A stretch of 64,000 bases of DNA from NCBI GenBank assembly GCA_902761575.1, contig CACWKU010000001.1:22435-86434 (forward strand), in the 5' to 3' direction. Origin of the DNA: an uncultured bacterium (lineage in GTDB: Bacteria; Verrucomicrobiota; Kiritimatiellia; RFP12; UBA3636). The notes under the pieces were generated by a model. The model did no database searches. It was not told the DNA's origin and saw only the letters and a program-made list of their open reading frames with translations. The position numbers were made by a program, and so were the translations under genes. Shown here piece after piece: positions 2,977-61,496 of the stretch (positions are counted from its first letter, which is position 1; each line of letters starts with the position of its first letter).

Positions 2977-3066
2977 GTGAACCTCGTGTTTGGATGAGCT
3001 GTTGTTTTCCTTGCGTAGTGCCGGTCCGGGCTCCGAGATGGCGGAGGTGCCGTTCGACAAGGCGGA

Positions 3067-3125
3067 ATTCTAGGCGTTGCCCCGTTTCGAAGATAGGGAC
3101 ACGGAACGCGGAAACAAGTAAATTT
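3067..3125 (-). promoter_or_regulatory. promoter of the left-edge SGNH gene: -10 TAGAAT plus upstream ATTTACTTG element 43 nt away
   Basis: rc ATTCTA at 3067-3072. Element ACAAGTAAATTT at 3114-3125. One member of the 11-copy promoter family. Confidence 0.5.
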
Positions 3126-10795: not shown

Positions 10796-10883
10796 CGTGA
10801 GCCTCGTGCTTTGGTTGCGTGCCCTTTCCGCACGCGTGCCGAATCCGGCCACGCGATGGCGATGGCTCCGTTCGACACCGCGA

Positions 10884-10942
10884 ATCATACCGCCGCGCCC
10901 GCCCGTTCGGCTAGGTAGATTCGCGGCGGATATCAGTAAAGA
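10884..10942 (-). promoter_or_regulatory. promoter of the giant esterase gene: -10 TATGAT plus upstream TTTACTGATA element
   Basis: rc ATCATA at 10884-10889. Element CAGTAAAGA at 10934-10942. Confidence 0.5.
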
Positions 10943-12616: not shown

Positions 12617-12690
12617 CGTGTGCCTCGTGTTGCTTGGGTTGTCGCCGCCGGGTCCGCCGCGATGGCGGGGACGCCGTCCGACAAGCCGGC

Positions 12691-12748
12691 ATTCTACCCG
12701 TACCGGCCTTTCGGCGGAAAGGGAGTCGCCCGGCGATATCGGGTAAAT
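12691..12748 (-). promoter_or_regulatory. promoter of 10964..12616: -10 TAGAAT plus upstream ATTTACCCG element
   Basis: rc ATTCTA at 12691-12696. Element GGGTAAAT at 12741-12748. Confidence 0.5.
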
Positions 12749-14443: not shown

Positions 14444-14523
14444 GATTTTACCCAAGCTCCGGCCGCAAGGCAAACGCGAGCGGCGGCGGCGCTGTTGCCG
14501 TGCGCGGGGCGGTCTGCTAGCAT
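14444..14523 (+). promoter_or_regulatory. plus-strand variant: GATTTTACCCAAG element with a TAGCAT hexamer 9 nt before the ATG of the tandem esterase gene (spacing 71, not 51)
   Basis: Element at 14444-14456. TAGCAT at 14518-14523. ATG at 14533. Confidence 0.3.
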
Positions 14524-14532
14524 CCCCCCGCC

Positions 14533-16236: not shown

Positions 16237-17158
16237 CCCGAAGCGGGAACCCGGCCGACTCGCGCAGGAGCGCGGTGATGCGCGCGGAGACGGCGTCCTC
16301 CGGCGCGCGGAGGCGCAGGACGCGCGCGTTGCCCGCCGGATCGGGCGCGAAGGGCGTGGAGAGGTCCGGCGCCACGCGGACGCGCCCCGGCTCGCCAAGC
16401 CCGTAGCACTCGTTCTCGCCGTGGACCGCGAGGTCGACGGTGACCGGGTCCCAGCTCGGGCGCGTCATCCCGGGGCCGCAGTAGCGCCGGAACGCCTCGG
16501 CGAGCGGATGCGCGGCGCAGTCCGGCGGCAGGCCGGAGAGGTCGGTGACCACCTTCTCGCCGCTCTCGAACCCGACGAAGACGATCGGGCCGTCCCACGC
16601 GTCGAGGAAGCGGCGCGTGGCCTCCGGGCGTTCGCGGACGTTGGTCTCCGCGTAGCCCGCGCACCGTCCGAAGCCGCCCGCCATCGCCCAGACGGCGCGC
16701 ACCTTGCGTCGGAAGAGCGCGGGGTCCTCCGCGAGGACCTCGTCGAGCGTGTTGAAGAAGCCGATCGAGATCACGTCGACGGAGCCGTCCGCCGCCTCCG
16801 CGAAGACGCGGCGGTAGAGCTCGCGCGCGGCGCACGACGTGGCGGGGTGCGCACCCCGCCACAATGCCGCGAGCGCGGCGAGATACGGGGACTCGTTGCC
16901 GCTCGGCGGAGGCGGGTCGTCCGTGACGCCGACGGGGACGTCCTGCAGGCCCCACGCGGCGAGGACCGCCTTCACCGCGGGCGCGGCGAGCGGCGTCTCG
17001 ACGTTGCACGAGACGCCGCCGATGCGGAACGCGCCGGCGTGGCGGCGCGACTCGGCGCAAAGCAGCGCGAGCGCGGCGACGTCGTCGACGTCGCCGCAGA
17101 AGTCCGTCTCGAGAACGACGGTCGCGCCCGTGCGGGCGGCGAGGGGCTCGGGCGTCAT
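16226..17158 (-). CDS. nucleoside hydrolase (inosine/uridine-preferring family)
   Basis: Start MTPEPLAARTGATVVLETDFCGDVDDVAALALL carries the DxDxxxDD aspartate cluster. ATGA overlap with the upstream CDS stop at 17155-17158. Confidence 0.7.
   Translation of the reverse strand: MTPEPLAARTGATVVLETDFCGDVDDVAALALLCAESRRHAGAFRIGGVSCNVETPLAAPAVKAVLAAWGLQDVPVGVTDDPPPPSGNESPYLAALAALWRGAHPATSCAARELYRRVFAEAADGSVDVISIGFFNTLDEVLAEDPALFRRKVRAVWAMAGGFGRCAGYAETNVRERPEATRRFLDAWDGPIVFVGFESGEKVVTDLSGLPPDCAAHPLAEAFRRYCGPGMTRPSWDPVTVDLAVHGENECYGLGEPGRVRVAPDLSTPFAPDPAGNARVLRLRAPEDAVSARITALLRESAGFPLRATC
16839..16862. repeat. perfect 24-nt palindrome GTGGCGGGGTGCGCACCCCGCCAC inside the nucleoside hydrolase CDS (encodes WRGAHPAT)
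   Basis: Exact palindrome. In-frame translation LWRGAHPATS. Confidence 0.85.
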
Positions 17159-19591: not shown

Positions 19592-19648
19592 ATCATAGTG
19601 CATCCGGCCTTGCGACGGTAGGGACGGCGCGGCCAAAAATGGGTAAAT
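19592..19648 (-). promoter_or_regulatory. promoter of 17155..19524: -10 TATGAT plus upstream ATTTACCCATTTTTG element
   Basis: rc ATCATA at 19592-19597. Element AAAAATGGGTAAAT at 19635-19648. Confidence 0.5.
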
Positions 19649-21833: not shown

Positions 21834-21891
21834 ATTCTACGCCCACACGCTCGCGGAAGGATAGGTACAAGATGCGCAAAATCTGGTAAAT
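21834..21891 (-). promoter_or_regulatory. promoter of the PATR protein gene: -10 TAGAAT plus upstream ATTTACCAGATTTTG element
   Basis: rc ATTCTA at 21834-21839. Element TGGTAAAT at 21884-21891. Confidence 0.5.
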
Positions 21892-27035: not shown

Positions 27036-27092
27036 ATGATAGAGGATTCCGGACGGCGGGACAAGGGATGAATCACGCAGATTCAAGTAAAA
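27036..27092 (-). promoter_or_regulatory. promoter of the beta-galactosidase-like gene: -10 TATCAT plus upstream TTTTACTTG element
   Basis: rc ATGATA at 27036-27041. Element CAAGTAAAA at 27084-27092. Confidence 0.5.
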
Positions 27093-34096: not shown

Positions 34097-34121
34097 GTGG
34101 CGGGGTGCGACACCCCGCCAC
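34097..34121 (-). terminator. GC-rich palindromic hairpin GTGGCGGGGTGCGaCACCCCGCCAC 8 nt downstream of the GH36-like gene stop
   Basis: Copy of the recurring 24-nt palindrome family. No U-tract. Confidence 0.45.
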
Positions 34122-34128
34122 GGCATCC

Positions 34129-35724
34129 TCAACGAGGCGCGATCTTGACCCAGACGAAGTCGAGCTTGTCGCGGACGGCGACCGTGAGGACGCCGCCTTC
34201 GATCCGCGCTTCGCCGCGACCGCCGATGACGGTCGGCTCCAGGCCGTCCGAGGGCAGGTAGTCGGCGAGGGGCAGGGAGAACTCCTCGCGCGCGTCCAGC
34301 TCGCGGAAGAGAAGCGCCGTTCCCGCCGTTCCGTCGCGGGACGCCGACACGAAGCCCGTCCAGGAGAGGCCGTCCGGCGCGCTCCCGACGGGATGGACGT
34401 AGCCCTCGTGGATCGCGTCGCGCTCCCGCTTCCATCGGGCGATGAGGGGCTTCCACGCCTCGACCGTCTCCCGCGAGAGGTTCTGGATCTCGAACCATCC
34501 GAGCGGCGAGGAGTACATCGCGATCGCGAAGATCGCGTCGCGCGGCCAGCGCAGGGGCGCGAGCGAGTCGCCATCGGGATACAGTTCCGGCTGGCGCTCG
34601 GGGTTCAGGACCTCCATCCGCAGACGCACGGGATCGACGGCGTGCGCGAGGCCCCAGAGGTTCCGCAGCGTGCGGTGCGGCCACCAGAGGCGGCCGTCGC
34701 CCTCGCGGACGTAGCGGTTTTCCACGAAAACGGGGCCGATGCGCGGGAACGCGAAGTAGCCGGGGCGCCGCCCCGCCGTGACGTCGAGGTCGACGGTGAT
34801 GCGGCCGCCCGACCCGTCCATCAGCCGGTCCATCAGCATCCCCTGGCGCGCGAATGCGAGAGGGGTCGGCGTGTCCATCGAGTCGAACTTGAAGTAGTCG
34901 ATGCCGAAAGAGCGGTGGAGGGACAGGAGGAAGTCGGCGTCCCGCCGCCAGTTCGCCGCCTCGTCGGAGGAGTCCGGCCCGAACCACAGCCCGAACTTCA
35001 GGCCCTTCGCGCGCGCCTCCGCGATGAGCGGCGCGAGCCCGCCCGGGAACCGGACGGGGTCGACGTCCCAGAACCCCGCCTCCTCCCACCAGGAGCCCCA
35101 GCGCCCCTTTTCGCCCCTCGCGACGCGGACGGAATTGGCCGTGTAGCCCTTCTCCCAGCCGTCGTCGATCTGGATCACGTCCACGCCGAGCTCGGCCCCC
35201 GCCGCGATCTCGCCCCGCAGGAAGCGCTCGTTGACGCAGGCGTCCTGGTGCCCGTCGCCCCAGGTGTTGGAGAGGAAGAGCCCGTCGCGCCCCGCGACGT
35301 ACGGGCGGAACGACCGGTGGAAGTCCGTGGCCGCGCGGACGCGCCCCGCCCTCCCGCCGCGATAGCCGACGCGGAAGCACCGGTAGGGACTGGAAAGGAT
35401 GCGCAGCATCTGCCGCCCGGGATCCACGTGCCAGTCGGGCGAATCGTCCGCCCGCGCGTGCGGCAGCGGCGCCTGGCGGAAGAAGGCGACGCCCTCCCCG
35501 CCGAGCGAATCCTCGAGGAAGAGCGCCGGTCCGGCAACGTCGAACGGCCTCTCGCAGCGGGAAAGCAGGCGCTCCTTCTCGAAGTAGAGGTCATCGTGCC
35601 GGTCCGTGTCGTCCACCAGCTGGACCTCGACCAGCCGCGGATGCTCCCACGTGTAGCGGAACTCGCCGCCCTCCTCCGCTCCGTACGGAAGCGCACGGAC
35701 CTCGGGCACGACGGAATCGGGCAT
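34129..35724 (-). CDS. alpha-galactosidase-like glycoside hydrolase (clan GH-D, GH36/melibiase-like)
   Basis: Track ORF. Motifs VIQIDDGWEKG and DYFKFDSMD. 14-nt gap to the upstream CDS. Confidence 0.55.
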   Translation of the reverse strand: MPDSVVPEVRALPYGAEEGGEFRYTWEHPRLVEVQLVDDTDRHDDLYFEKERLLSRCERPFDVAGPALFLEDSLGGEGVAFFRQAPLPHARADDSPDWHVDPGRQMLRILSSPYRCFRVGYRGGRAGRVRAATDFHRSFRPYVAGRDGLFLSNTWGDGHQDACVNERFLRGEIAAGAELGVDVIQIDDGWEKGYTANSVRVARGEKGRWGSWWEEAGFWDVDPVRFPGGLAPLIAEARAKGLKFGLWFGPDSSDEAANWRRDADFLLSLHRSFGIDYFKFDSMDTPTPLAFARQGMLMDRLMDGSGGRITVDLDVTAGRRPGYFAFPRIGPVFVENRYVREGDGRLWWPHRTLRNLWGLAHAVDPVRLRMEVLNPERQPELYPDGDSLAPLRWPRDAIFAIAMYSSPLGWFEIQNLSRETVEAWKPLIARWKRERDAIHEGYVHPVGSAPDGLSWTGFVSASRDGTAGTALLFRELDAREEFSLPLADYLPSDGLEPTVIGGRGEARIEGGVLTVAVRDKLDFVWVKIAPR

Positions 35725-35737
35725 GGAAGGAAGGCCC

Positions 35738-36388
35738 TTACTTGACGGTAATGACCGCCGGCTTCCCCGCCGGTTCGTCCGACGGAAGCTCGCGCACCTG
35801 GATGGCGTTGATCAAAGCCTGGCCGCTGTACGAGATCGTGAACTCCTCCGTCGTGGCTTCGGCGGTGAACTGGCAGATCAGCGAACCGCCGTATTCCCAT
35901 CCGGTTCCGGCGAACTTGGCAACCGTCGTTCGGTCCGGCGCGGTCGCCGACTGCGTCGTGTAGTCGTTGCGGAAGGCGACCATCTGGACCAGATACCGCT
36001 TCCCGGATTCCAGATTCTTCAACGCGATCGGCCGGTCCTTGCCGTTTGCCCACCAGCCATTCGACAGCAGATCCTTGTAATCGCCCGACTCGGTGTCGGA
36101 GGGAGGCGACGAAACGGCGTTGCCGGCTCCGCCCGAGGCTTCCCAGACGACGCAGTCCGCCGTATTGACGATTTTGTCGCCGACACCGGCGAACGAAACG
36201 CCGTTGACCGTGTAGTTTCCGCGGGCGTAGGCGTACTTGAGCGTTCCGTCCGTGCGGATCGACGTGCTGCTCGCCGTCAGTGGCGTAGCAGACCACGTGA
36301 CGTCCGTTGCCGCCCCGGCGGGGGCGGCGACGAGCGCGGCGGCGGCCGCGAGGGCGAGGGCGGCGGTTTTCCTGACGATGCGATTCAT
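35738..36388 (-). CDS. small secreted stand-alone malectin-like beta-sandwich (putative carbohydrate-binding) protein
   Basis: Start MNRIVRKTAALALAAAAALVAAPAGA at 36386-36388. Motifs NGWWAN...YLVQMV...INAIQVREL. AAGGAG Shine-Dalgarno site 7 nt upstream. Confidence 0.6.
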   Translation of the reverse strand: MNRIVRKTAALALAAAAALVAAPAGAATDVTWSATPLTASSTSIRTDGTLKYAYARGNYTVNGVSFAGVGDKIVNTADCVVWEASGGAGNAVSSPPSDTESGDYKDLLSNGWWANGKDRPIALKNLESGKRYLVQMVAFRNDYTTQSATAPDRTTVAKFAGTGWEYGGSLICQFTAEATTEEFTISYSGQALINAIQVRELPSDEPAGKPAVITVK

Positions 36389-36476
36389 GGGACGTCTCCT
36401 TGTCCGGGACGGGGTTGTCGTCGGCCGGTTCTCCCGGCCGCCTCCGACGGAGGCCGTGGCGGTGCCGACGTCCCGT

Positions 36477-36534
36477 ATCATACCCCCGCGCCCCAGCGGG
36501 CGAGTAGGTTCAAATCGGGCAAAAACGGGTAAAG
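36477..36534 (-). promoter_or_regulatory. promoter of the malectin-like/GH36-like operon: -10 TATGAT plus upstream CTTTACCCGTTTTTGCCCGATTT element
   Basis: rc ATCATA at 36477-36482. 23-nt element at 36512-36534. Confidence 0.55.
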
Positions 36535-36549
36535 CGCCCAGCCCTTCGC

Positions 36550-36573
36550 GTGGCGGGGTGCGGACCCCGCCAC
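36550..36573 (-). terminator. palindromic hairpin GTGGCGGGGTGCGgACCCCGCCAC 25 nt downstream of the 36598..39927 stop
   Basis: Same palindrome family with one mismatch. Confidence 0.45.
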
Positions 36574-36597
36574 GGCGGCGAACGCCACAAGGGGCGG

Positions 36598-39500
36598 CTA
36601 CTTGATCCGGTAGACGTGCCGGCTGAAGCCGTCGAAGGCGTCGGAGAAGACGCCGCCCTTCGCCTGGAGGGTGCGGTTCTCGTAGAGGACCTCGACCGTG
36701 GTGTCCTGCGGGACGTCGTCCGGGAGGCGGAACGAGACCCGGGCGTTCGGGTGCGGGTTGACGTTGGCCGTGTAGATGCGGCGCTCGCTCCCGTGCCGGC
36801 GCGTGAGGCAGCGGATGTAGTTCTCGGTCTCGCTCGCGATGGCGCCGCCGCAGAGCTCGTCGGAGCAGAGGAAGTCGACGTTGTCCAGCAGCTCGCGGTT
36901 GATGTCCACGAGCGCGTCGTAGCAGCAGCGCGAGGTGGGCATGTTGACGAACCAGGAGAGGCCCGTCGCGCCGGCGGCGACACAGCCCCAGCACTGCGCG
37001 ACCTGCTCCTTGTAGGTCGGGATCCGCGGATGGAGCGAGTTCTCGCTCTCCATGAAGTACCAGCACGGCTTGCCGGGCGCGATGGAGCGCAGGACGTCGA
37101 CCTTCGAGACGACCATGTCGAGCGTGGTGCCGTCGACGGTCAGGTAGTAGTCGACCATCAGGATGTCGGTCGGGAGCCCCGCGAAGCGCCCGGAGATGCC
37201 GAGCCAGCAGTTGTTCATCTGCACGGGGTTGTAGGGGAAGAGGGCCTTCGTCCGCTTCATGAACGCCTTGCAGTCGTCGGCGTTGCGGTACTCGGGCTCG
37301 TCGAGGACGAGCCAGTTGATCACGTTCGGGCTGTCGAGCATGCCGTACATCTTCCGGCGCGACCAGTCGGTGACGGAGTTGTCCTCCCAGCGCCGGATCT
37401 CGCCCACGTCGTCGAGGGTCTGGCCCTCGCCGGTCCAGATCGTGAACTTCATGCCTTTCTGTGCCGCGTACGCGAGCGTCTTGCGGTTCATCTCGATGTC
37501 GCGGACGTTGAGGTTGTTCTGCAGGTTCAGGTACTTGAACCCGGCGTCGGCGAGGATGTCGACCGGACGCGAGGTGCCGTCGTCCATCGGCCCGTTCTCG
37601 CGGCCGATGAGGCACGGCGAGCTCATGAACACCTTCTCGCCGTCGTGGACGAGCGTGCGGGACCACTGGTTGATCTGCGTCGCGCCCTTCTTGAAGGGCA
37701 GCTTGCGGACCTCGGCCTTCCACTCGCGGCCGAGCGCGCGGACCGTGACGGCGTTGGTGCCGCAGGGCATCCCGGAGATGTCGATCGAGACCTGCTCGAA
37801 GCCGCCCTTGCCGTCCCACGCGCGGAAGTCGGCGGTCCTCTCCTCCATGTAGAAGTCGTAGTGGCCGAGGAGGAGCCCCTCGGGCGGGAGCGGATAGCCG
37901 CAGAGCGCGTTCTCGGCGGGCGTGAGCGGCGCCGTGCGCTCGGGCTTCGCGTGCGGGGTCGGCTTGCCGAGCGCGAAGTTCTCCGCGTCGCCGGACTTCG
38001 GCTTGTACTCCGTCGCGTAGGTCTTCGCGGGGTCGAAGCCGCCGGCCGGCGGGTCGACCATCTCGAGCTGCAGGTCGTCGAGCCAGATCGAGGCCTCGGT
38101 CGTGCGGTCGCGAAGGCCGGGGACGTCGAACCAGACGGGGCTGAAGATGCCGGGCGCGGGCAGGTTGGTCGTCGTGACCTCGTAGCGCGTCCATTCGGTC
38201 GTGAGGTCCACGATCCGGGCGTTGTCGGAGAGCTTCGCCTTGAACTGGACGCCGGGCTCGGACGCCTTCGCCCAGAAGGAGAGGACCGCGCTGCGGCCCT
38301 TCTGCGTGGGCGTGTTCCAGGCGAAGAAGTCGAAGCTGCGGACGAACGGCCCGATGCGCAGCCGGAGCGACTGCTTCCCGGAGTGCCTCTCGGCCGTGTC
38401 GACCATGAAGCACTTGAGGTACTTCTCCTTGTAGTCCTCGATCGAGACCTTCGACATCTCGCAGGAATTGCGGTTGCAGTAGTGCAGCGGCACGCCGTCG
38501 CCGTCGAACTCGAAGCCGGAGTTCGAGATCAGGTTCGGGCTGTCCTCGCCCTTGAGCGCGTAGATCGTGACGCGGCGCACCTCGAAGGGGCACTTGAAGT
38601 TCTCGATGCCGAGCGGGGCCCAGTGCGCGACGCCGTCGAAGCCGACGGTCTTCCTCGGCGTGGGCGCCGTGTAGTAGTTGCCCAGGACGCCGTTGAGGAA
38701 GAAGGCGTAGCCCATCATCGTCTCGCCGATCTTGCGACGCTCGAAGCGGACCGTGACCGGCTCGCCCTCCTTGAAGTTGGCGATCCAGGGGTAGGCGCTG
38801 CGCGTCGGCTGGTCGGCCACCGGCTGGTAGAGGGTCACCCCGTAGCCGTCGCTGCGGACGCCGAACGTGCCGTAGTCGCCGGTCATGACCGCCCAGTGGT
38901 AGTCGCCGTCCTTCGGGTCCTTGATCTCGCTCCACGCGGGGTAGACCGCGATCTCGGCCTCGGCCGCGAACTCGTCCGGCAGCTCGCCCTTCCACTGGAT
39001 GCCGTCGCCGGTGCCGCCGCTCGGGATGCGCACCGCGCCGTCCTTCACCTCGATGTCCTTCTGCGCGTGCCCGCGGAAGCTCCAGCGCTCGGCGAAGACC
39101 TTGGGCTCGGAGAAGTCGTCCTCGAAGATCGGGACCGAGAAGTCGGAGACCGGCCCGCCCGGCGCGCGGGCGGCCCCGGCGGCGTTCGCGGGCTCCTTCT
39201 TCTCGTAGCGCGGCCCCGCCTCGAGCGGCACGTCCGTCGCGCTTGCGTAGAACTTCCCCGTGACCTCCTCGTAGAGGCCGGCGACGCCGCCCTTCACGAC
39301 CGGGACGAAGCGCGCGAGCGGCTTTCCGTCCCGGTAGAACTCCGCCCCGTAGAGCGCGAGGTCGTAGCAGGCGTAGGACTTCACCGACCCGTCGTCGCAG
39401 GTCATCCCGAAGAACGAGACCGGGACCTTGCCGGCCGCGGTGCGCTCGCCCTCGAGCTTCATGTCGAAGCTGCCCCAGGTGACGTGCCGGCCGTCGTAGA

Positions 39501-39927
39501 CGATCGACACGCGGGTTCCGATGGCGGAGTCGTTCACCTCCTGGAGGCCGCAGTGGATCCACTTCTCGCGGCTCTTGCGGCCCAGGCTCGCGAACGTCTG
39601 GTAGGCCTGCGCCTCGTGCCCGCCGAGCGCGAGCTGGAAGAGGTCGCGGAAGCCCTCCGCGTCCTGCGCGTCCTCCTGGCCGAAGAAGACCGTCGTGTTC
39701 TTCGCGTGGTCGAACTTCCCGCCGAAGATCTGGTTGAACGGGCCGTCGAACCGGACGTCCATCCGGAACGTCGTCCCGGGCTGCGGCACGAGGTCGGTCT
39801 TCACGCAGCTGCCGTGCGTGGACTTGACGTATTCGACGCGGTAGTCGAAGTCCGCGGCGGCGGCGGACACGGCGGCGGCGGCGAGGCAGGCCGCGACGGC
39901 GCGGGCGTTTCGTTCGATGGCGTTCAT
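36598..39927 (-). CDS. 1109-aa secreted putative glycoside hydrolase of unrecognised family with CBM4/9-like domain; paralog of 43645..46467
   Basis: Track ORF with a signal peptide. C-terminal ~400 aa shared with 43645..46467 (MPCGTNAVTVRA.GR.W, TIWTGE/ILWTGD, PVQMNN, CW(Y/F)F, YENRTL). Confidence 0.55.
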   Translation of the reverse strand: MNAIERNARAVAACLAAAAVSAAAADFDYRVEYVKSTHGSCVKTDLVPQPGTTFRMDVRFDGPFNQIFGGKFDHAKNTTVFFGQEDAQDAEGFRDLFQLALGGHEAQAYQTFASLGRKSREKWIHCGLQEVNDSAIGTRVSIVYDGRHVTWGSFDMKLEGERTAAGKVPVSFFGMTCDDGSVKSYACYDLALYGAEFYRDGKPLARFVPVVKGGVAGLYEEVTGKFYASATDVPLEAGPRYEKKEPANAAGAARAPGGPVSDFSVPIFEDDFSEPKVFAERWSFRGHAQKDIEVKDGAVRIPSGGTGDGIQWKGELPDEFAAEAEIAVYPAWSEIKDPKDGDYHWAVMTGDYGTFGVRSDGYGVTLYQPVADQPTRSAYPWIANFKEGEPVTVRFERRKIGETMMGYAFFLNGVLGNYYTAPTPRKTVGFDGVAHWAPLGIENFKCPFEVRRVTIYALKGEDSPNLISNSGFEFDGDGVPLHYCNRNSCEMSKVSIEDYKEKYLKCFMVDTAERHSGKQSLRLRIGPFVRSFDFFAWNTPTQKGRSAVLSFWAKASEPGVQFKAKLSDNARIVDLTTEWTRYEVTTTNLPAPGIFSPVWFDVPGLRDRTTEASIWLDDLQLEMVDPPAGGFDPAKTYATEYKPKSGDAENFALGKPTPHAKPERTAPLTPAENALCGYPLPPEGLLLGHYDFYMEERTADFRAWDGKGGFEQVSIDISGMPCGTNAVTVRALGREWKAEVRKLPFKKGATQINQWSRTLVHDGEKVFMSSPCLIGRENGPMDDGTSRPVDILADAGFKYLNLQNNLNVRDIEMNRKTLAYAAQKGMKFTIWTGEGQTLDDVGEIRRWEDNSVTDWSRRKMYGMLDSPNVINWLVLDEPEYRNADDCKAFMKRTKALFPYNPVQMNNCWLGISGRFAGLPTDILMVDYYLTVDGTTLDMVVSKVDVLRSIAPGKPCWYFMESENSLHPRIPTYKEQVAQCWGCVAAGATGLSWFVNMPTSRCCYDALVDINRELLDNVDFLCSDELCGGAIASETENYIRCLTRRHGSERRIYTANVNPHPNARVSFRLPDDVPQDTTVEVLYENRTLQAKGGVFSDAFDGFSRHVYRIK

Positions 39928-39966
39928 GGTCGTTTTCCCCTGGATGGTTCCGGTCGGACTTGCGGG

Positions 39967-41121
39967 CTAGAGCCCGAGCTCCTTCGCCTGCTTGGAGGCG
40001 ACGCGCTCGGATTCGGCGGCGGCCTTCACGCGGTCGATCTGGAGGCCGAAGTCGCCGCTCTCCGCGTGGTCGCGGTCGGCGATCGGCTCGTCGCCGAAGC
40101 TCGTCGCCATGATCGAGAAGATGCGCGCGAAGTTGCCGTCGCAGGAGCTGAAGTGCGTGTCGTTCTCGTTGAGGCGGTTGGTGAGCACCACCTCGACGGC
40201 GTCGAGGCCCGGGTCGATCAGGAGGAAGCACCCCGTGGCGCCGGCGTGGCCGACGGCCTCCATCGTGTTCACCTCGCCGAAGTACTGGCCGAAGCCGACG
40301 TAGCCGGACTTGATGAAGAACGCCGGCGTGCGGTTGAACTCGGGCCTGAGGCAGCGGCGGAAGAGCGCGTCGGCACCCTGCGGCGTGAGGATGCCGGCCT
40401 TGCGCGTGCGGCGGATGTCGAGCAGGTGCCGGCCGAACTTCACGAGGTCCGGCGCGGTGATGTGAAGCCCCGACTGCCCCTGGTGCGCGGCGAAGGCGGA
40501 GTGCTCCATGCCGAGCGGGCGGAAGATGCGGTCGCGCGCGAGGTCGGCGACGTCCGCGGCGCCGGTGACCTTCTCGCAGATCTCGGCGAGGATGTCGTAG
40601 CCCTGCGACATGTAGCGGAACTTCTCGTTCACCTCGAAGTCCTGGTACATCGTGGCGTAGAACTCGTCGTGGCGCTTCTCATCCACGGCCTTCGCGACGT
40701 GCCCGGTGCGGTTGCGCCAGCCCGAGGTGTGCGTCATCAGGTTGATGATCGGCACGTTCTCGCCGGGGAACTCCGGAATGTACTTCCTCACGTAGTCGTT
40801 GAGGGAGAGCTTGCCCTCCTCCGAGAGCTGCATCAGCAGCGTCGCGGTGAAGACCTTGGTGATCGAGGCGACGTGGAGGGGCGTGTTCTCGTCGAACCCC
40901 TCCCAGCCCTTCTGCGCGACGAACCGGTAGCGCGTCTCGCCGTGCTGCTCGTAGACGCAGCTCATGCACTTGAGGGCGCCGCCCTCGAACTCGCTGGCGA
41001 GGAACGCGTCCACGCGGGACTTGGCGTCGGCGCCGTCCGCCGCGAACAGCGATCCGGCGAGCAGGGAGGTCGTTCCGACCGCGATGGCGCGGACGGCGTG
41101 GTTCCGAACGATGCGTTTCAT
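39967..41121 (-). CDS. secreted serine hydrolase, beta-lactamase/transpeptidase fold (esterase-like)
   Basis: Track ORF. SxxK motif ASITKVFTA. Confidence 0.7.
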   Translation of the reverse strand: MKRIVRNHAVRAIAVGTTSLLAGSLFAADGADAKSRVDAFLASEFEGGALKCMSCVYEQHGETRYRFVAQKGWEGFDENTPLHVASITKVFTATLLMQLSEEGKLSLNDYVRKYIPEFPGENVPIINLMTHTSGWRNRTGHVAKAVDEKRHDEFYATMYQDFEVNEKFRYMSQGYDILAEICEKVTGAADVADLARDRIFRPLGMEHSAFAAHQGQSGLHITAPDLVKFGRHLLDIRRTRKAGILTPQGADALFRRCLRPEFNRTPAFFIKSGYVGFGQYFGEVNTMEAVGHAGATGCFLLIDPGLDAVEVVLTNRLNENDTHFSSCDGNFARIFSIMATSFGDEPIADRDHAESGDFGLQIDRVKAAAESERVASKQAKELGL

Positions 41122-41203
41122 GGGAGGGCTCCGGACGATGGGGATGTCGTTCCTTCGGCGCGCCGCCCCCCCCGGGGGACGGCACCCGCGCCGAACGCCG
41201 CCG

Positions 41204-41261
41204 AGTATACCCCACGGACCGCTCGCGAAGAAAGGGCGAAATCGGGCAAAGACGGGTAAAT
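41204..41261 (-). promoter_or_regulatory. promoter of the serine-hydrolase/large-GH operon: -10 TATACT plus upstream ATTTACCCGTCTTTGCCCGATTT element
   Basis: rc AGTATA at 41204-41209. 23-nt element at 41239-41261, almost identical to 36512-36534. Confidence 0.55.
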
Positions 41262-41316
41262 CAATGTCACCCCCGTCTTTTCCCGTTCCTCGCCGGTCGG
41301 GCAGTGGAGGCGCGGG

Positions 41317-43515
41317 CTACTCTTCCGCGAAATCGATCTTCCAGCGGAAGAAGAGCCGGGGCGGGCTGCCGCCGGCGGCGGGCTTCCAGGTGCCGTCGCC
41401 GCCGTCGTACGCCATCGGAACCAGATTCTCGTCGGACCAGTCCGCAAGGTCTTCGGTGGCTTGCACCGTCAACGCCGCCCCCTCGGTGTTCACCGGCTCC
41501 GGAATCGTGACGGACGGATTGCCGTCCTCATCGAAGCCGATGTCGAGCAGCGGCTCGGTTAGGTCTGCGGGGCCGATCGAGGGGTCGATGTCGAAGACAT
41601 ACCGCACGCCGGCCGGGATTCCGTTCACCATATCTTCCGGTTTCGGCATGTCTTCCGGTTTCGGTTCGTCGGTAATGCCAACGTCATTCAGCCAGAGCTC
41701 GTACGCGCTGAAGAACGTCCGCAGGTACGGATACGTCTCTTCGTCGATCTTCCAGACGTCGACGAAGTCGAGGGCTGTGAAGGACTCTTTCCGCTGCATC
41801 TCCTCGTCGCCGAGCGGCGTGATGCCGGCGTAGTCGTCGGAGCCGCTACTCGTGCCGGCGGCCTTCAGGCCGTTCTCGGTGTCTTCATAGTAGGAACCCG
41901 TGACGAGACCGGAACTGGCCAGGCCGACGAACGCGCCGCGATAGTGCCCACCATCGCTCGAGACGTAGCTGTAGCACCAGGAGGTGTCGATTCGGGCCGC
42001 CTTCGACACGCCGCCCGCGAAGCCGCCGACATTGTCGCCACCATTGCCGCCGTAGCCGTCGCTGCTATCCACTGACGATTGGGCGCTGGAGTCCGCGATG
42101 AAGCCGCCGCCGTGGTTGCCGACGAAGCCGCCCGTGTACGACTTGCCGGACTCGTTCGCCACATAACTTTCCACGCAGCAGCGGAGAATGACGGGCGCGT
42201 CTGCGGTGTAGCCGACGAAACCGCCGGCGTTGACGCTGTTTGTATTCCAGACTTCTCCGACGAACCAGCAGCCGTCCACTAGCGACTTGGAGTCGATCTT
42301 GCCCGCGAGACCGCCGACGCCGACGTCCTCCAATCCGGAGTCGGCCGGACCGCCGGTGACATAACCCTCCTCCACTTGCACGCCGCTCACGCGGCCGCCG
42401 TTGATCTTGCCGAAGAGTCCCGCATACTTGTCCGTGGTGTCGATGTAGAAGTTGCTGATCTTGTGGTTCTGTCCGTAGAACTCGCCTTTGAACGGGGTTC
42501 TGTAGTTGCCGATGGGCTCGATGGTCTCGCCGTCGAAGTCGATGTCCGCCGTCAGCACATAGCTGCCCGAGAGGTTGTTCGTGACGGCGAGCAGTTCCTC
42601 GGGAGTCGAAATCGGAATCATCGCGCTGGACTTGGCGCGTTTCGGCGCTTCCGGCCACTTGGCGGAGCGTGCCTTTATGTCCGCCTGCGTGAGCCTGCCG
42701 CCCGTGATGGCCGGGTCGTTCCCGCAGAACGGACGCGGCCCGTTGGCGTAGGCCGAAACCGCGCAGTTGACATTCGTTCCTCTCACGTGGTGGCCGATGA
42801 ACGACCCAATGTCGCCGCCCGTGCCCCACACGGCGCCGGAGCACCAGCAGTCGCTGATCGTCGCATCGTCGTGGGCGAGCCGCCCGACGAAGCCGCCGTA
42901 GTAGCTGGCGGCGGAGCGCACGTCGCCGCGCGCCACGCAGTTGGAGATCACGGCTGGCGCATAAACGTAGCCGATGAATCCGCCCGCCATGCCGGAACCG
43001 CTGACGAAGCCGTCCGCACGGCAGTCGACGATTCGATTGGTCGCGCTGCCGCCGGCGCAGGCCCCGACCAGACCTCCGGCGTAGGAGTTGGTCGCCGCGA
43101 TCTCGACCGTCGCGATGCAGTTGCTGATGACCGTTCCGCCCGTGATGCATCCGACGAGACCGCCGACGTACTGCTTGCCCGCGACCGTTCCCGAGACGGA
43201 AACACGCTTGATCGTCGCATTGCTCGCGCAGCCGAAGAGCCCGCGATAGTCGCTGCCCGACAGGCTGTTCGTGCAGAAGAGGTTGCGGATGGCGCGGTCG
43301 TTGCCGTTGAACGTGCCGGTGAACGGCGCCGAATCGGTGCCGATGGGCGTCCAGTCCGCCCCGCCGAGGTCGATGTCCGAGCCAAGCTCGTAGGAGCCGG
43401 CGAGGTTCTCCGCGATCGCCGCGAACCCCTCGCGGGTGGTGACGAGCGTGGGCTCGGCGACCGCGTGCGCTGCCGCGAAGGCGAAGAGCAGGGGAAGAAG
43501 GGGACGGTGCTTCAT
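41317..43515 (-). CDS. secreted GLUG-motif repeat protein
   Basis: Track ORF. Many YxGG(L/F)(V/A)G repeats (YVGGLVG, YAGGLVG, NAGGFVG, NVGGFAG). Confidence 0.6.
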   Translation of the reverse strand: MKHRPLLPLLFAFAAAHAVAEPTLVTTREGFAAIAENLAGSYELGSDIDLGGADWTPIGTDSAPFTGTFNGNDRAIRNLFCTNSLSGSDYRGLFGCASNATIKRVSVSGTVAGKQYVGGLVGCITGGTVISNCIATVEIAATNSYAGGLVGACAGGSATNRIVDCRADGFVSGSGMAGGFIGYVYAPAVISNCVARGDVRSAASYYGGFVGRLAHDDATISDCWCSGAVWGTGGDIGSFIGHHVRGTNVNCAVSAYANGPRPFCGNDPAITGGRLTQADIKARSAKWPEAPKRAKSSAMIPISTPEELLAVTNNLSGSYVLTADIDFDGETIEPIGNYRTPFKGEFYGQNHKISNFYIDTTDKYAGLFGKINGGRVSGVQVEEGYVTGGPADSGLEDVGVGGLAGKIDSKSLVDGCWFVGEVWNTNSVNAGGFVGYTADAPVILRCCVESYVANESGKSYTGGFVGNHGGGFIADSSAQSSVDSSDGYGGNGGDNVGGFAGGVSKAARIDTSWCYSYVSSDGGHYRGAFVGLASSGLVTGSYYEDTENGLKAAGTSSGSDDYAGITPLGDEEMQRKESFTALDFVDVWKIDEETYPYLRTFFSAYELWLNDVGITDEPKPEDMPKPEDMVNGIPAGVRYVFDIDPSIGPADLTEPLLDIGFDEDGNPSVTIPEPVNTEGAALTVQATEDLADWSDENLVPMAYDGGDGTWKPAAGGSPPRLFFRWKIDFAEE

Positions 43516-46497: not shown

Positions 46498-46555
46498 ATC
46501 CTACCACACCGTCCCGAGGGGCGGCTAGGTACGCCGGGGCCTGAAAGCGGTAAAA
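46498..46555 (-). promoter_or_regulatory. promoter of 43645..46467: -10 TAGGAT plus upstream TTTTACCGCTTTC element
   Basis: rc ATCCTA at 46498-46503. Element CGGTAAAA at 46548-46555. Confidence 0.45.
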
Positions 46556-48841: not shown

Positions 48842-48943
48842 GCAAGAAATTGTACCATCCGCTCCGTGCCCTCCCCGTGCCCCTCGCTCGCCCCGCGCCG
48901 GGTCGGCGGTGGTCGTAGCTCGCATCGCTCGGTCCCGAAAACC

Positions 48944-49025
48944 AACAAACTCCCGAGTGTTTATTCAACAAACTCCCGAACGATTCTTCAACAAACTCCC
49001 GGACGAAATTTCAACAAACTCCCGA
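48944..49025 (+). repeat. four direct repeats of CAACAAACTCCCGA (period 22-23 bp) immediately upstream of the ATPase promoter
   Basis: Copies at 48944, 48967, 48989 and 49012. The third copy ends in G. Confidence 0.85.
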
Positions 49026-53105: not shown

Positions 53106-53163
53106 ATGCTATCACCTCGCGCGCGTTGCGGGTAGGGACGGACCGCCCAAAAAGCGGTAAATC
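53106..53163 (-). promoter_or_regulatory. promoter of the ABC fusion gene: -10 TAGCAT plus upstream ATTTACCGCTTTTTGGG element
   Basis: rc ATGCTA at 53106-53111. Element GCGGTAAAT at 53155-53163. Confidence 0.5.
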
Positions 53164-53231
53164 CGAGCAATGCCCGCCATTCTACCACAACTCCCCCGTC
53201 CCGCGCCAACCCGCCCCTGCGGCGGCGTGGC

Positions 53232-55839: not shown

Positions 55840-56691
55840 ATGAAACGTGCGCAGAACGAGGAGTCCGCCCCCCGGCGGCGGCTCTGCACACCGGACGGTT
55901 TTGCACGGTCGTCTCTCCTCCACGTGCAGGAGATCGGCGAGCTTGCTCCGTCACGTCCGATGACGAGCCGGCGCGCGGGATTCCCGTCGCTTCTCTTCCT
56001 GCTCGCCGAGTGGGGCGAAGGCGTGGTCCGCGAGGGCGCCGAGGAGCGTCCGCTGCGCGCCGGGGAGTGCGCGCTGCTGGACTGCCGCCGCGGGTGCGGA
56101 CACGCGACGGGCGAGCCGCCGTGGCGGCTCAAGTGGATCCACTTCGACGGACCCGGCGCGGCGGCGTTCGGCGAGAGATGGCGTGAGCGCGCCGGCGGAC
56201 CGGTCCTGCGCGCGACGTCGCCGGAGCGCTACCGGCGCGCGTGGGAGGAGGTCTGGGCCGCGGTCTCGTCGGAGGACGACCCGATCCGCGACCTCCGCGC
56301 GAACGAGGGGCTCGCCTCGCTCTGCACGCTGCTGATGCAGGACGCTCTCGGGACGGAGCCCGACCGGCGCGCGGAGCGCCTCGCGGCGGTGCGCTCCTGG
56401 ATCGATGCGCACTGCGCGGAGGAGGTCGCGCTCGACCGTCTCGCGGCGGTGGCGCACCTCAACAAGTACACGCTCGTGCGCGAGTTCCGCGCGCGGTACG
56501 GCGTGCCGCCGATGCGCGCCCTGGCGCAGGCTCGCGTCTCGAGGGCCAAGCGCCTGCTCCGCTTCACGGACGACACCGTCGAGACGATCGGCGCGGCGGT
56601 CGGAGTCCCCGACCCGAACTACTTCGCGCGCCTCTTCCGCCGCGTCGAGGGCCTCTCGCCGCGCGCCTTCCGCGAACGCTGGCGGGAATGA
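55840..56691 (+). CDS. AraC-family transcriptional regulator (cupin sensor + HTH)
   Basis: Track ORF. C-terminal HTH ...YTLVREFRARYGVPPMRALAQARVSRAKRLL. Confidence 0.75.
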   Translation: MKRAQNEESAPRRRLCTPDGFARSSLLHVQEIGELAPSRPMTSRRAGFPSLLFLLAEWGEGVVREGAEERPLRAGECALLDCRRGCGHATGEPPWRLKWIHFDGPGAAAFGERWRERAGGPVLRATSPERYRRAWEEVWAAVSSEDDPIRDLRANEGLASLCTLLMQDALGTEPDRRAERLAAVRSWIDAHCAEEVALDRLAAVAHLNKYTLVREFRARYGVPPMRALAQARVSRAKRLLRFTDDTVETIGAAVGVPDPNYFARLFRRVEGLSPRAFRERWRE

Positions 56692-59790: not shown

Positions 59791-61496
59791 GGTGTGGTGT
59801 ACCGGGAACTTGATGAGCGGGAAGCGGAAACATCCGGCGTGGCGCCGTCGGCGCGGAGGCGCAGGGCGAGCCCGCCCTCCGGGGGCTCCTCGACGATCGC
59901 CTCGACGCGACCGAGCCCGGCCGCGGCGTGGAAGGCGAGGACGGCCGCGTCGAGAATCCCGGAGACCTCGGGGTCGAGGCGCAGCCCGAACTTCGCCGCA
60001 AAGCCCGCGAGCGCGTTCGCCGTGCGGACCTGCGCCGCGAGGCGCGGCATGTCCGCGCGCAGCGCGAGGAGCGCGGCGGGGTGCGCACCCCGCCACGCCG
60101 CCACGACCTGGCCGACGGTCTCGCCGCTCCCCTCCCCCGCCCCGCCGGTCAGCGCGTTCCACGCGCCCCGGCCGAGGCCGAGGTCGAGCCGACCCGCGGT
60201 AGCGTCCTCGGAGACGAACGCGCAGTCCGCCTCCGGCGTCTGGCCGAGCAGCTCGAACTTCTTCGCGCGGACGAGCCGCGTGGCGGGGTCCGGCGCCGAG
60301 TCGCGAAGGCGCAGGTCCACGTCCGCCTTGAGCGCCTCGAACCACGGCGGCCACCACTGCGCGAGCGGCGCCGCGGGATCGGCGGGAAGCGAAAGCGCGA
60401 GCGACGGCACCTCGAGGATCGCCAGGTGCGTCGCGTTCGGACGGTCCGCCGCCCACGCGACCGCCGTGCCTTCGCCGAAGGGCGGCAGGCCCGAGTCGGC
60501 CGGGATCCACCCCTTCGCGACCGGCGCGGCGACGAGGAGGAACGCCGCGTCCGCCGGCGCACGCGCCGCGGCGCCCGCGAGGGGCGCGGCGGCGCCGAGC
60601 GACGGGTCGGGGAGGCTGGACCGTATCCCGGAGCCGACCATGGCGTCGAGCTCGATGCCCGGGCGCCTGAACGACGCGAGGTCGAGCGTGAAGGGATTGC
60701 AGTCGAACGCGTAGGGACCGAGGTCGTAGGGCTGCACCCAGATGCGGTGGCGCTTGCGGATCTCGCGCCAGGGCTCCGGTTCGCGGTCGGCCTGGACCGG
60801 GCCGCCTGCCTTGAAGCATCCGGCGAGACGCTGCCAGGAGTCCGTCTTCCCCGCGACGCGCGCCGCGAGCTCGGCTACGCGGTCCGGGTCCTGCGCGAGG
60901 ACGGCGACGAGGACGCCGTCGACGATATCGAGGCCGAGGACGATGCCATTGTCGCGCAGCTCGCGGGCGTGCGGGAACTCCATGTAGCGCGTGCCCTTCG
61001 CGGTGGTGCGCAGCGGCCCGAGGCCGGGCACCCACCTGATGCGCCAGAGCAGCTCCAGCGCGCGCGCCTTCCAGCCGACGTAGCTCGCGCCCGCGAGGTA
61101 GCCGCCGAGCCCGGCGCATTCGCCCTCCTCCGGGACGACGCCGACGACCGAGTTCTCGCCCGTGAGCCAGAAGAGCGTCCAGAAGACGCCGGCGTTGTCG
61201 TCGATCGCGTCCTCCGGATCGCCGCCGAGCGCGCGCAGCGCGTACTGGAACGACGGGTTGCGCAGGAGTGCGCGGTCCTCCATCGCGAGGTTGCGCACGT
61301 AGGCCGCGGCGGCGGTCCGCTCCGGCAGCGCATAGAAGAGCTCCGCCCGGTCCATCGGATACCAGAAGAACCAGAGCGCGACGGCGGCGATCGCGCAGCG
61401 ACGCAGCGCCTTGCGGCGCCGCCGCGCCCAGGCGCGCGGCCCCGTGGCGGGGTCCGCCCCCGCGGCGAGAAATTCGTCGTCGTCCATGTCGCCCAT
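59787..61496 (-). CDS. hypothetical single-pass membrane protein
   Basis: Track ORF. One hydrophobic helix AIAAVALWFFWYP. ATGA overlap with the GH3 start. Carries an in-frame copy of the 24-nt palindrome (WRGAHPA). Confidence 0.45.
   Translation of the reverse strand: MGDMDDDEFLAAGADPATGPRAWARRRRKALRRCAIAAVALWFFWYPMDRAELFYALPERTAAAAYVRNLAMEDRALLRNPSFQYALRALGGDPEDAIDDNAGVFWTLFWLTGENSVVGVVPEEGECAGLGGYLAGASYVGWKARALELLWRIRWVPGLGPLRTTAKGTRYMEFPHARELRDNGIVLGLDIVDGVLVAVLAQDPDRVAELAARVAGKTDSWQRLAGCFKAGGPVQADREPEPWREIRKRHRIWVQPYDLGPYAFDCNPFTLDLASFRRPGIELDAMVGSGIRSSLPDPSLGAAAPLAGAAARAPADAAFLLVAAPVAKGWIPADSGLPPFGEGTAVAWAADRPNATHLAILEVPSLALSLPADPAAPLAQWWPPWFEALKADVDLRLRDSAPDPATRLVRAKKFELLGQTPEADCAFVSEDATAGRLDLGLGRGAWNALTGGAGEGSGETVGQVVAAWRGAHPAALLALRADMPRLAAQVRTANALAGFAAKFGLRLDPEVSGILDAAVLAFHAAAGLGRVEAIVEEPPEGGLALRLRADGATPDVSASRSSSSRYTTP
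60073..60096. repeat. near-perfect copy (GCGGCGGGGTGCGCACCCCGCCAC) of the 24-nt palindrome inside the CDS 59787..61496 (encodes AWRGAHPA)
   Basis: One mismatch at position 2. The same WRGAHPA peptide as at 16839-16862. Confidence 0.8.

Follow-up and report, generated by a model that had tools for sequence, protein, structure and literature searches.

A lineage-specific promoter class with a candidate activator site in place of the -35 element at secreted-enzyme operons of an uncultured rumen Kiritimatiellae bacterium

We analyzed a 64,000-nt stretch of DNA (the window) from an uncultured bacterium of the Kiritimatiellia (Verrucomicrobiota; RFP12; UBA3636), comprising positions 22,435 to 86,434 of contig CACWKU010000001.1 (assembly GCA_902761575.1), in which two almost identical 23-mers precede two operons. 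The window is ~69% G+C and almost wholly coding on the minus strand; its sequence is also present on rumen metagenome scaffolds, and homologues of its proteins are labelled Kiritimatiellae. Sequence comparison leads us to propose, with moderate confidence, that the 23-mer forms the 5′ portion of a promoter peculiar to this lineage, in which it is probably an activator site that replaces the -35 element, and that the two operons are most likely co-regulated.

Copy A (ATTTACCCGTCTTTGCCCGATTT, 41239-41261) precedes the genes for a secreted serine hydrolase and a 1109-aa protein, and copy B (CTTTACCCGTTTTTGCCCGATTT, 36512-36534) those for a 216-aa secreted protein and a melibiase-like protein. Both are located on the minus strand, which also carries the coding sequence of the genes behind them, and they differ at positions 1 (A/C) and 11 (C/T) of the 23-mer. 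The pair had been pointed out in an earlier note on this DNA, and a mismatch search bore it out: allowing up to 3 mismatches, the only matches in the window were the two copies themselves, and 100 dinucleotide shuffles gave 0.00 matches. The note had also placed both copies in promoters. We found them 29 nt 5′ of -10 hexamers (TATACT for A and TATGAT for B) that lie 83 and 89 nt before the ATG, the copies themselves being 139 and 145 nt 5′ of the start codons, respectively.

The notion that the 23-mer belongs to a family-wide element was likewise confirmed. It represents positions 0-22 of a 57-bp composite promoter, TTTAC-N20-CCTW-N21/22-TAnnAT, whose shared layout was first seen by reading the intergenic regions of the window. 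In the window there are 10 instances of TTTAC-N20-CCT[AT]-N21/22-TAnnAT, all on the coding strand before a gene start, against none in 30 Markov shuffles; these promoters account for 10 of the window's 19 TTTAC pentamers. Promoter A spans 41204..41260 (TTTAC at 41260-41256, TTTGC at 41250-41246, CCTT at 41235-41232 and the -10 TATACT at 41209-41204) and promoter B spans 36477..36533 (TTTAC at 36533-36529, TTTGC at 36523-36519, CCTA at 36508-36505 and the -10 TATGAT at 36482-36477). The remaining members, all on the minus strand as well, are those at 53106..53161 (before a sugar ABC binding-protein/permease fusion gene), 46498..46554 (before a 940-aa paralogue of the 1109-aa protein), 27036..27091 (its module containing the palindrome TGAATC-N5-GATTCA, retained in five lineages), 21834..21890 (TTTAC-N5-TTTGC with TGTAC at positions 22-26 and no CCCG), 19592..19647 (before a beta-helix protein), 12691..12747 and 3067..3122 (each before a GDSL esterase), and 10884..10940 (before a 1848-aa multi-esterase). 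The first genes behind family promoters all encode a signal-like N-terminus (10/10), compared with 3 of 13 other first genes (p = 3.6e-4), and the secreted products include esterases, an alpha-galactosidase operon, beta-helix proteins and a sugar ABC binding-protein/permease. The family is a promoter class specific to a high-GC (~67-69% GC) clade of rumen Kiritimatiellae. Rfam gave 0 matches at the gathering score across the whole window, which excluded a known RNA element.

None of the family members has a TTGACA-like hexamer 16-18 bp 5′ of the -10. At promoters A and B the hexamers in the expected -35 place are TTCTTC and ACTCGC, and a consensus scan for canonical -35/-10 promoters returned 0 sites in the region 35700-41400. 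Since hexamers of the TAnnAT type precede the ATG of housekeeping genes by 8-10 nt in a relative (locus L078; L numbers denote loci of relatives throughout), TAnnAT very likely represents the genuine -10 recognised by the primary sigma factor. Extended -10 promoters of the TGTGGTAGAAT type were seen 8-10 nt before the ATG of housekeeping genes, in L078 intergenic regions and at 14500-14533 of the window, which suggests that housekeeping mRNAs of this clade are leaderless or near-leaderless. In a relative within the Planctomycetes-Verrucomicrobia-Chlamydiae group, a Cappable-seq study of Akkermansia found ordinary -35/-10 elements and 10% leaderless transcripts. Family promoters, unlike those of housekeeping genes, have leaders of ~25-90 nt. 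An ordinary extended -10 promoter (GTTGTGGTAGAAT, 53175-53195) was also observed ~17 nt upstream of the 53161 family promoter, and the ABC transporter gene may therefore have tandem promoters.

An alignment of 14 distinct promoter types from the window and its relatives revealed, in the 29-bp module upstream of the -10, invariant positions T1-T2-T3-A4-C5, G14 and C26-C27-T28. Position 6 is always a pyrimidine, position 9 is always A or T, and T11 is found in 13 of the 14 types; every one of the nine types that do not belong to the subtype formed by copies A and B and their relatives has T24, which both copies lack. Within-sequence identity of the module is highest at lags of 8-11 nt, and TTTRC-N5-TTTRC occurs three times in the window (A, B and the 21890 promoter) against 0.01 expected. 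We read the module as three putative half-sites that recur every 10-11 bp and share a helix face: TTTAC at 1-5, TyyGS at 11-15 and nnT(A/C)C at 22-26, the last continuing into CCTW at 26-29. This is in keeping with the earlier proposal of repeat units 10 nt apart on one helix face, although the conserved unit is TTTRC with a 10-11-bp period and not CCCGWTTT. The half-site centres lie ~5, 4 and 3 helical turns from the centre of the -10. With +1 taken ~7 nt past the -10, the module would extend from -63 to -35 and the 23-mer from -64 to -42, and the half-site centres would fall at ~-61, -51 and -40, which are classic places for activators and for the C-terminal domains of the RNA polymerase alpha subunit.

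The earlier note had acknowledged that the two loci might be recent segmental duplicates. In-register comparison led us to reject this: identity between A and B is 9/10 and 10/10 in the two 10-nt bins covering module positions 1-20, but only 1-5/10 in every bin upstream of the module and mostly 1-6/10 downstream, where a single 8/10 bin lies within the signal-peptide coding region. Flanks, spacers and leaders are unrelated, and the proteins downstream of the two copies come from different families. The likeness is a sharp 22-bp block rather than a duplicated segment. This stands out because the three GDSL-esterase paralogues of the window show the opposite pattern, with near-identical leaders and different modules. 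These paralogues have in common a 5′ leader, GTCGRACGG-N7-GCCATC, and a signal peptide (2975-3066, 10795-10883 and 12616-12690).

Nevertheless, the A/B pair is less special than it first appears, yet not trivial. Over the family-variable positions 6-25 it shares 16/20 bases, whereas the runner-up pair (19647/53161) shares 15/20, and the identity of A and B is largely due to the fact that both copies lie near the family consensus. What distinguishes the pair within the family is an uninterrupted identical run of 12 nt, compared with no more than 7 nt for all other pairs. When scored over positions 6-18 with a matrix built from nine other promoter types, copy B (36533) was the top match at 13.5 bits, the nine types themselves scoring 1.5-11.5 bits and the subtype versions 7.9-13.5 bits. 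Copies A and B are thus near-consensus in positions 1-18, while in positions 19-25 they depart from the consensus, with a common ATTT at 19-22 and no T24. The supposition that the 23-mer is the strongest form of the family element is consequently in keeping with positions 6-18, where copy B is best, but not with positions 19-25.

We then considered conservation among related promoters, in three groups drawn from lineages with protein identities of 79-97%. Module identity exceeded spacer identity in each: 0.92 against 0.52 for the 27091 type, 0.70 against 0.36 for versions A, A′ and D, and 0.86 against 0.48 for versions B and C. Selection acts on the module and not on the spacer that leads to the -10. 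The palindrome of the 27091 type (TGAATC-N5-GATTCA, 27067-27085 in the window) is kept at L007:11997, L044:6211, L060:6152 and L063:6994, where the adjacent spacer has diverged, and could be the operator of a promoter-specific regulator.

Eight versions of the subtype (A, A′, A″, D, B, B′, C and C′) precede hydrolase, 1109-aa or 216-aa orthologues, in four gene orders. Version C (L007; TTTACCTGTTTTTGGACGATTTGTCCCTG) drives a 1110-aa gene followed by the hydrolase, and version C′ (L084), which is as C with CCCG in the first unit, drives a 1111-aa gene. Version A″ (L084; TTTACCCCTTTTCGACCAATTCAACCCCT) drives the hydrolase, version A′ (L063; TTTACCCGTTTCCGCCCGATGGAAACCTT) the hydrolase and then the 1109-aa gene, version D (L059 and L044; TTTACTCCTATTCGCCCGATTCGCCCCTA) the 1109-aa gene alone, and version B′ (L044), which is as B with CCTG in the first unit, the 216-aa gene. 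TTTAC, T9, T11, G14, C17, A19 and T20 are constant in all eight versions, whereas CCCG is altered in 4/8 in the first unit (CCTG in L044 and L007, CCCC in L084, CTCC in L059) and in 3/8 in the second (GACG in L007 and L084, ACCA in L084), contrary to the earlier suggestion that CCCGWTTT is the conserved unit. The subtype mostly has CGAT at positions 17-20; it is set apart by A19 plus T20 (8/8 versus 1/9 of the other types, p = 4e-4) and by T24 (2/8 versus 9/9, p = 0.002), with the caveat that these Fisher tests overstate independence, given that the eight versions share descent. The signature is retained at 79-91% protein identity while the spacers have been randomised, and it tracks the hydrolase and 1109-aa gene set through several gene-order rearrangements. 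The 216-aa and melibiase-like proteins are joined to that set via promoter B and shared operons.

The subtype was also sought in one genome per species across 185,579 species, using the pattern TTTAC-N5-TTTG-NN-CGATTT-NNN-CCT. Of the 50 loci obtained, only three had the full promoter, namely A and B in RUG13889 and B in a second close relative; the other 47 lacked a -10 and belong to taxa that are unrelated and have 30-60% GC. On these grounds we rejected the idea that the exact subtype defines a large regulon: the three real loci are these same promoters, and the set is small. General conservation 5′ of hydrolase orthologues was rejected as well, because orthologues 69-88% identical, in genomes of 59-62% GC and with other neighbours, have no family promoter.

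Taken together, we favor a model in which an ordinary sigma-70-type -10 (TAnnAT) without a -35 would be served by the 29-bp module ending 21-22 bp upstream of it. A trans-acting activator would bind the half-sites head to tail and, once bound, would recruit RNA polymerase, as response regulators do at -35-less promoters. Copies A and B would be among the strongest sites, because their first and second half-sites are perfect (TTTAC-N5-TTTGC), and operons A and B would be co-regulated through the subtype site, because the signature stays with the gene set however it is ordered. The comparisons show the motif, the family, its fixed spacings, stronger conservation of the module than of the spacer, the association with secreted proteins and the lack of duplication; where transcription starts, that the module activates and does not repress, and what kind of protein binds it are our inferences. 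Several observations weigh against it. The likeness of A and B is modestly above what family column composition gives (column shuffling, P for a maximum of at least 16 = 0.034), version A″ of L084 has CAAT instead of CGAT, and the shared descent of the eight versions weakens the Fisher tests, as mentioned above. The third half-site is weak, and shifted in the subtype, and the module positions relative to +1 are calculated from the -10. No candidate binding protein is encoded near these promoters, either in the window or in high-GC relatives: the only regulators in the window are an AraC-family protein (~55960-56691) and an NrtR-like protein, and no local regulator gene was found among the neighbours of the subtype promoters in L053, L059 and L063, which are a 547-aa open reading frame, rubrerythrin and an unrelated enzyme. 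A HisKA_3/GerE two-component system found in sister lineages (see below) has no homologue in the window or at any high-GC locus. Finally, the reader of the module could be a repressor or a polymerase subunit instead of an activator.

Other explanations dispense with an activator or define the functional unit differently. Phased T-tracts near -62, -52 and -42 might be touched directly by the alpha C-terminal domains, the module being an upstream (UP)-like element or curved DNA. T-runs at 1-3, 9-13 and 20-22 are indeed phased by ~10 bp, the inferred T-tract positions coincide with alpha C-terminal domain positions reportedly known from work by Estrem and colleagues in 1998-99, and the module region is richer in A+T than the 31% background. 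However, A+T over the inferred -59 to -38 is just 36% in copy A (8/22) and 50% in copy B (11/22), and neither copy matches the UP consensus nnAAAWWTWTTTTnnnAAAnnn, which is near-continuous A/T from -59 to -38. In addition, a minor-groove A/T reader would not specify the invariant C5, G14, C26 and C27, and each promoter lineage holds its own sequence over positions 6-25, including the palindrome of the 27091 type. We therefore regard a UP-like element as unlikely. About equally unlikely is the interpretation of the earlier note, in which two CCCGWTTT half-sites spaced by 10 nt would function together as a dimer site and the family element would reach its highest affinity in the 23-mer. The spacing was correctly noted, as CCCG occurs at positions 5-8 and 15-18 of both copies; C15-C17 and G18 are the commonest bases in other family members, and copy B is the most consensus-like module over positions 6-18. 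The repeat itself, though, is exact in the 36512 copy alone, the first unit of copy A being CCCGTCTT; CCCGWTTT is unenriched in the window (6 found versus 2.8 expected), the 21890 promoter has TTTAC-N5-TTTGC without CCCG, and the versions in relatives change CCCG while keeping TTTAC, T9, T11, G14, A19 and T20. A dimer site of this kind accordingly seems a doubtful account.

It is improbable, in our view, that the module is the promoter of an extracytoplasmic function (ECF)-like sigma factor, with TTTAC as -35, nGT(C/A) at 22-25 as -10 and a repressor operator in between. The 16-nt spacing from TTTAC to CGTC/CGTA matches ECF architectures such as TGAAAC-N16-CGTA, all of the promoter types outside the subtype (9/9) have T24, and the conserved palindrome of the 27091 type would suit an operator. 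Copies A and B, by contrast, lack T24 and read TCGC (A) and TGAA (B) at positions 22-25, TTTAC is without the AAC core typical of an ECF -35, and this explanation leaves no role for the TAnnAT fixed 21-22 nt downstream in every member. A comparably low probability attaches to descent or chance, whereby A and B would either descend from a single ancestral piece of promoter or be two random draws close to the consensus, and would share no regulation beyond that of the whole family. The small lead over the next pair and its probability under family column composition speak for it, as does the fact that promoter pieces are visibly shuffled between genes in this clade; against it, the A/B flanks, spacers and leaders are unrelated, while the duplicated GDSL paralogues kept their leaders and diverged in the module, and the subtype signature outlasted the randomisation of the spacers. 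Least credible is a role of the 23-mer in intrinsic termination, in which it would supply the upstream gene's terminator with its 3′ arm and U-tract. An imperfect inverted copy of module positions 5-27 (41272..41294, plus strand) can pair with copy A in a ~20-bp stem followed by the U-rich run CUUUCUUC (span 41236-41294), and this stem may terminate the upstream GLUG-repeat gene (41317-43515), overlapping the next promoter. Yet the fold is no better than shuffles (z = -1.26), and no such pairing exists at other family members. The left arm is lost in the closest relative, RUG13889 (L053), which is 97.6% identical across gene and promoter, and copy B lies 15 nt beyond a separate perfect hairpin and outside it. 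The hairpin at copy A is thus not a general function, being absent from the closest relative and from copy B. A sigma-28 (FliA) promoter, TAAA-N15-GCCGATAA, was also tried and rejected: GCCCGATTT resembles its -10, but there is no TAAA 15 nt upstream, and it lies 29 nt from the real -10-like hexamer.

If an activator does read the module, known systems offer some guidance as to its kind. Boxes of the OmpR/PhoB family are likewise short T-rich half-sites arranged head to tail every 10-11 bp, and pho-box-type boxes commonly abut or replace the -35 at promoters with only a -10. The other strand of copies A and B reads GCAAA-N5-GTAAA, which agrees at 9 of 10 specified bases with the CpxR box GTAAA-N4-8-GTAAA (PMC5063474), and TTTAC-N5-TTTGC of the copies parallels the KdpE site TTTATA-N5-TTTACA (PMC3264566). 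The module differs from OmpR/PhoB boxes in having three units instead of two, a G+C-rich second half in each unit and a last unit that ends in the invariant CCTW, and in serving roughly half of the window's promoters; the window encodes no winged-helix response regulator. There are also likenesses to the NarL family, whose heptamer consensus is TACYYMT. In copies A and B the module starts with TACCCGT, matching 6/7 of the heptamer (among other members, 19647 has TACCCAT, 7/7, and the rest 4-6/7), and in four family members the last unit is TACCTAK or TACCTTT. At the BvgA promoters fha and ptx, weaker phased sites extend from a strong upstream site to a poor -35, an arrangement that the module resembles. 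On the other hand, its units are direct repeats and not the inverted 7-2-7 of NarL/FixJ sites, and no inverted partner was found in the module.

Two further comparisons concern the promoter rather than its reader. The UP element of E. coli rRNA promoters occupies the same place (~-60 to -40), has phased T-runs and could similarly raise promoter strength, but the module is 36-50% A+T, with invariant G/C and promoter-specific conserved sequence. The -33/-7 promoters of Bacteroidota (TTTG ... TAnnTTTG) are also a lineage-specific departure from TTGACA/TATAAT in gut glycan degraders, and TTTG is found in both; here, however, the -10 is an ordinary TAnnAT, ordinary -10 promoters, many of them extended, serve the housekeeping genes of the clade, and the departure is confined to one gene class and lies far upstream.

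Sister lineages provided a different view of the same genes. In relatives of lower GC (58-65%), the family module is absent and a 14-bp palindrome lies 1-2 nt before a normal -35, being either P1 (TACYC-N4-GRGTA) or P2 (CCTAC-N4-GTAGG), with one type per lineage at several promoters of carbohydrate-active enzymes. P1 sites were found at L004:9924, L067:2773, L075:3362, L064:1146 and L071:3581, and P2 sites at L068:3061 and 4674, L072:7924, 15316 and 18825, and L085:8295 and 13336. At five loci, a HisKA_3 kinase and GerE-type response regulator are encoded divergently from P1 or P2, beside a hydrolase or 1109-aa orthologue (L004:7478-9861, L067:313-2690, L075:916-3275, L068:577-2945 and L085:5814-8245). 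The regulators adjacent to P1 (n=3) are 93-100% identical to each other and those adjacent to P2 (n=2) ~99%, compared with 41% between the two groups, and at all three P1 sites next to a regulator the palindrome is perfect, TACCCAGTCGGGTA. Palindrome type thus co-varies with the type of the adjacent NarL-type regulator. Co-variation of motif and regulator, which the earlier note had recommended looking for, is consequently seen in the sister lineages only, and not in the window or the high-GC loci, where there is no such system. The half-sites of the palindromes beside these HisKA_3/GerE systems are built from TACCC or CCTAC, and by analogy the sister lineages point towards the NarL family as the reader of the module. 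As a tentative extension, it is possible that each rumen Kiritimatiellae lineage puts an upstream tag of its own on most of its secreted glycan-enzyme promoters, and that a fast-evolving NarL-type two-component regulator reads the tag. The tag would be P1 or P2 (TACCC-N4-GGGTA or CCTAC-N4-GTAGG) in the sister lineages and the -35-replacing 29-bp array of three phased half-sites in the high-GC clade, and the hydrolase/1109-aa locus, which is regulator-adjacent in sister lineages, would bear the strongest tag in each, here the 23-mer.

The two operons were supposed to share a layout in which a small or medium enzyme gene is followed by a large glycoside hydrolase (GH)-like gene. Each does consist of two genes closed by the same type of hairpin, but the described order fits operon A only. 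The first gene of operon A (39967..41121, minus strand) encodes a 384-aa secreted serine hydrolase of the beta-lactamase fold (PF00144, E = 6.9e-43) with a signal-like N-terminus, and the second, after a gap of 39 nt (36598..39927, minus strand), the 1109-aa protein, which has no Pfam hit and only 21 homologues in a database of 5.8 billion sequences. A structural model built from those homologues (mean predicted local distance difference test score 73.8) has a TIM barrel (~residues 785-1020) in addition to four beta-sandwich regions and a C-terminal sandwich. Glycoside hydrolases of several families, 8-14% identical, make up all of its best PDB matches. On the basis of this model, the protein is predicted to be GH-like, of a family that cannot be named. 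The fold is visible in the predicted structure only, since a sequence search of the 1109-aa protein against PDB found no match; the same search with the 216-aa protein was also empty. In operon B, the 216-aa secreted protein (35738..36388, minus strand) is a stand-alone ~170-aa domain, 57% identical to a domain repeated in the GDSL-esterase proteins of the window that looks non-catalytic. It is followed after 13 nt by a 531-aa protein (34129..35724, minus strand) with a weak match to Melibiase, which is alpha-galactosidase-like (PF02065, 29.7 bits versus a cut-off of 27). Operon A is closed by a perfect 11-bp hairpin, CGTGGCGGGGT-N4-ACCCCGCCACG (36549..36574, minus strand), located 15 nt upstream of promoter B, and operon B by one of the same type with a 5-nt loop (34097..34121, minus strand). 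Hairpins of the form GTGGCGGGGT-N4/5-ACCCCGCCAC recur at 16839-16862, 34097-34121, 36550-36573 and 60073-60096 (0 expected), two of them ending operons A and B, and represent a REP (repetitive extragenic palindromic)-like or terminator element without a U-run.

Motif aside, the hydrolase, 1109-aa, 216-aa and melibiase-like genes are functionally linked through varied operon combinations. The hydrolase is paired with the 1109-aa gene in the window and L063, a 1110-aa gene precedes the hydrolase in L007, and the hydrolase lies directly before the melibiase gene on the contig of P0003. At least five orders or combinations of the four genes were observed across window positions 34129-41121, L007, L044, L053, L059, L063, L084 and the P0003 contig, with rearrangement breakpoints at or just 5′ of promoter modules. 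In L056/L059 a different paralogue substitutes for the 216-aa gene behind the same promoter. Hydrolase orthologues 80-88% identical were also found in L004 and L005, among unrelated neighbours in genomes of 59-62% GC, which suggests transfer of the hydrolase gene between rumen Kiritimatiellae lineages.

The Kiritimatiellae of rumen and gut, abundant and uncultured, break down complex glycans. We found no description of their promoters or regulators in the full-text literature, nor a published description of this promoter class, for which activation is the mechanism we propose. A promoter class as stereotyped as this would allow regulons to be read from metagenome-assembled genomes and would flag co-expressed enzymes, here an esterase-like hydrolase, a GH-like protein, a binding-domain protein and an alpha-galactosidase-like enzyme. 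It would also supply synthetic-biology parts for a phylum without genetic tools, and the co-variation of palindrome and regulator in the sister lineages makes the identity of the tag reader directly testable. Elsewhere in the window, four direct repeats of TCGGGAGTTTGTTGAA with a 23-bp period (48941-49025, minus strand; 0 expected) occupy the divergent intergenic region between an isochorismatase/NrtR-like Nudix operon and an AAA_14/DUF4143 ATPase gene, and look like an operator or iteron array.

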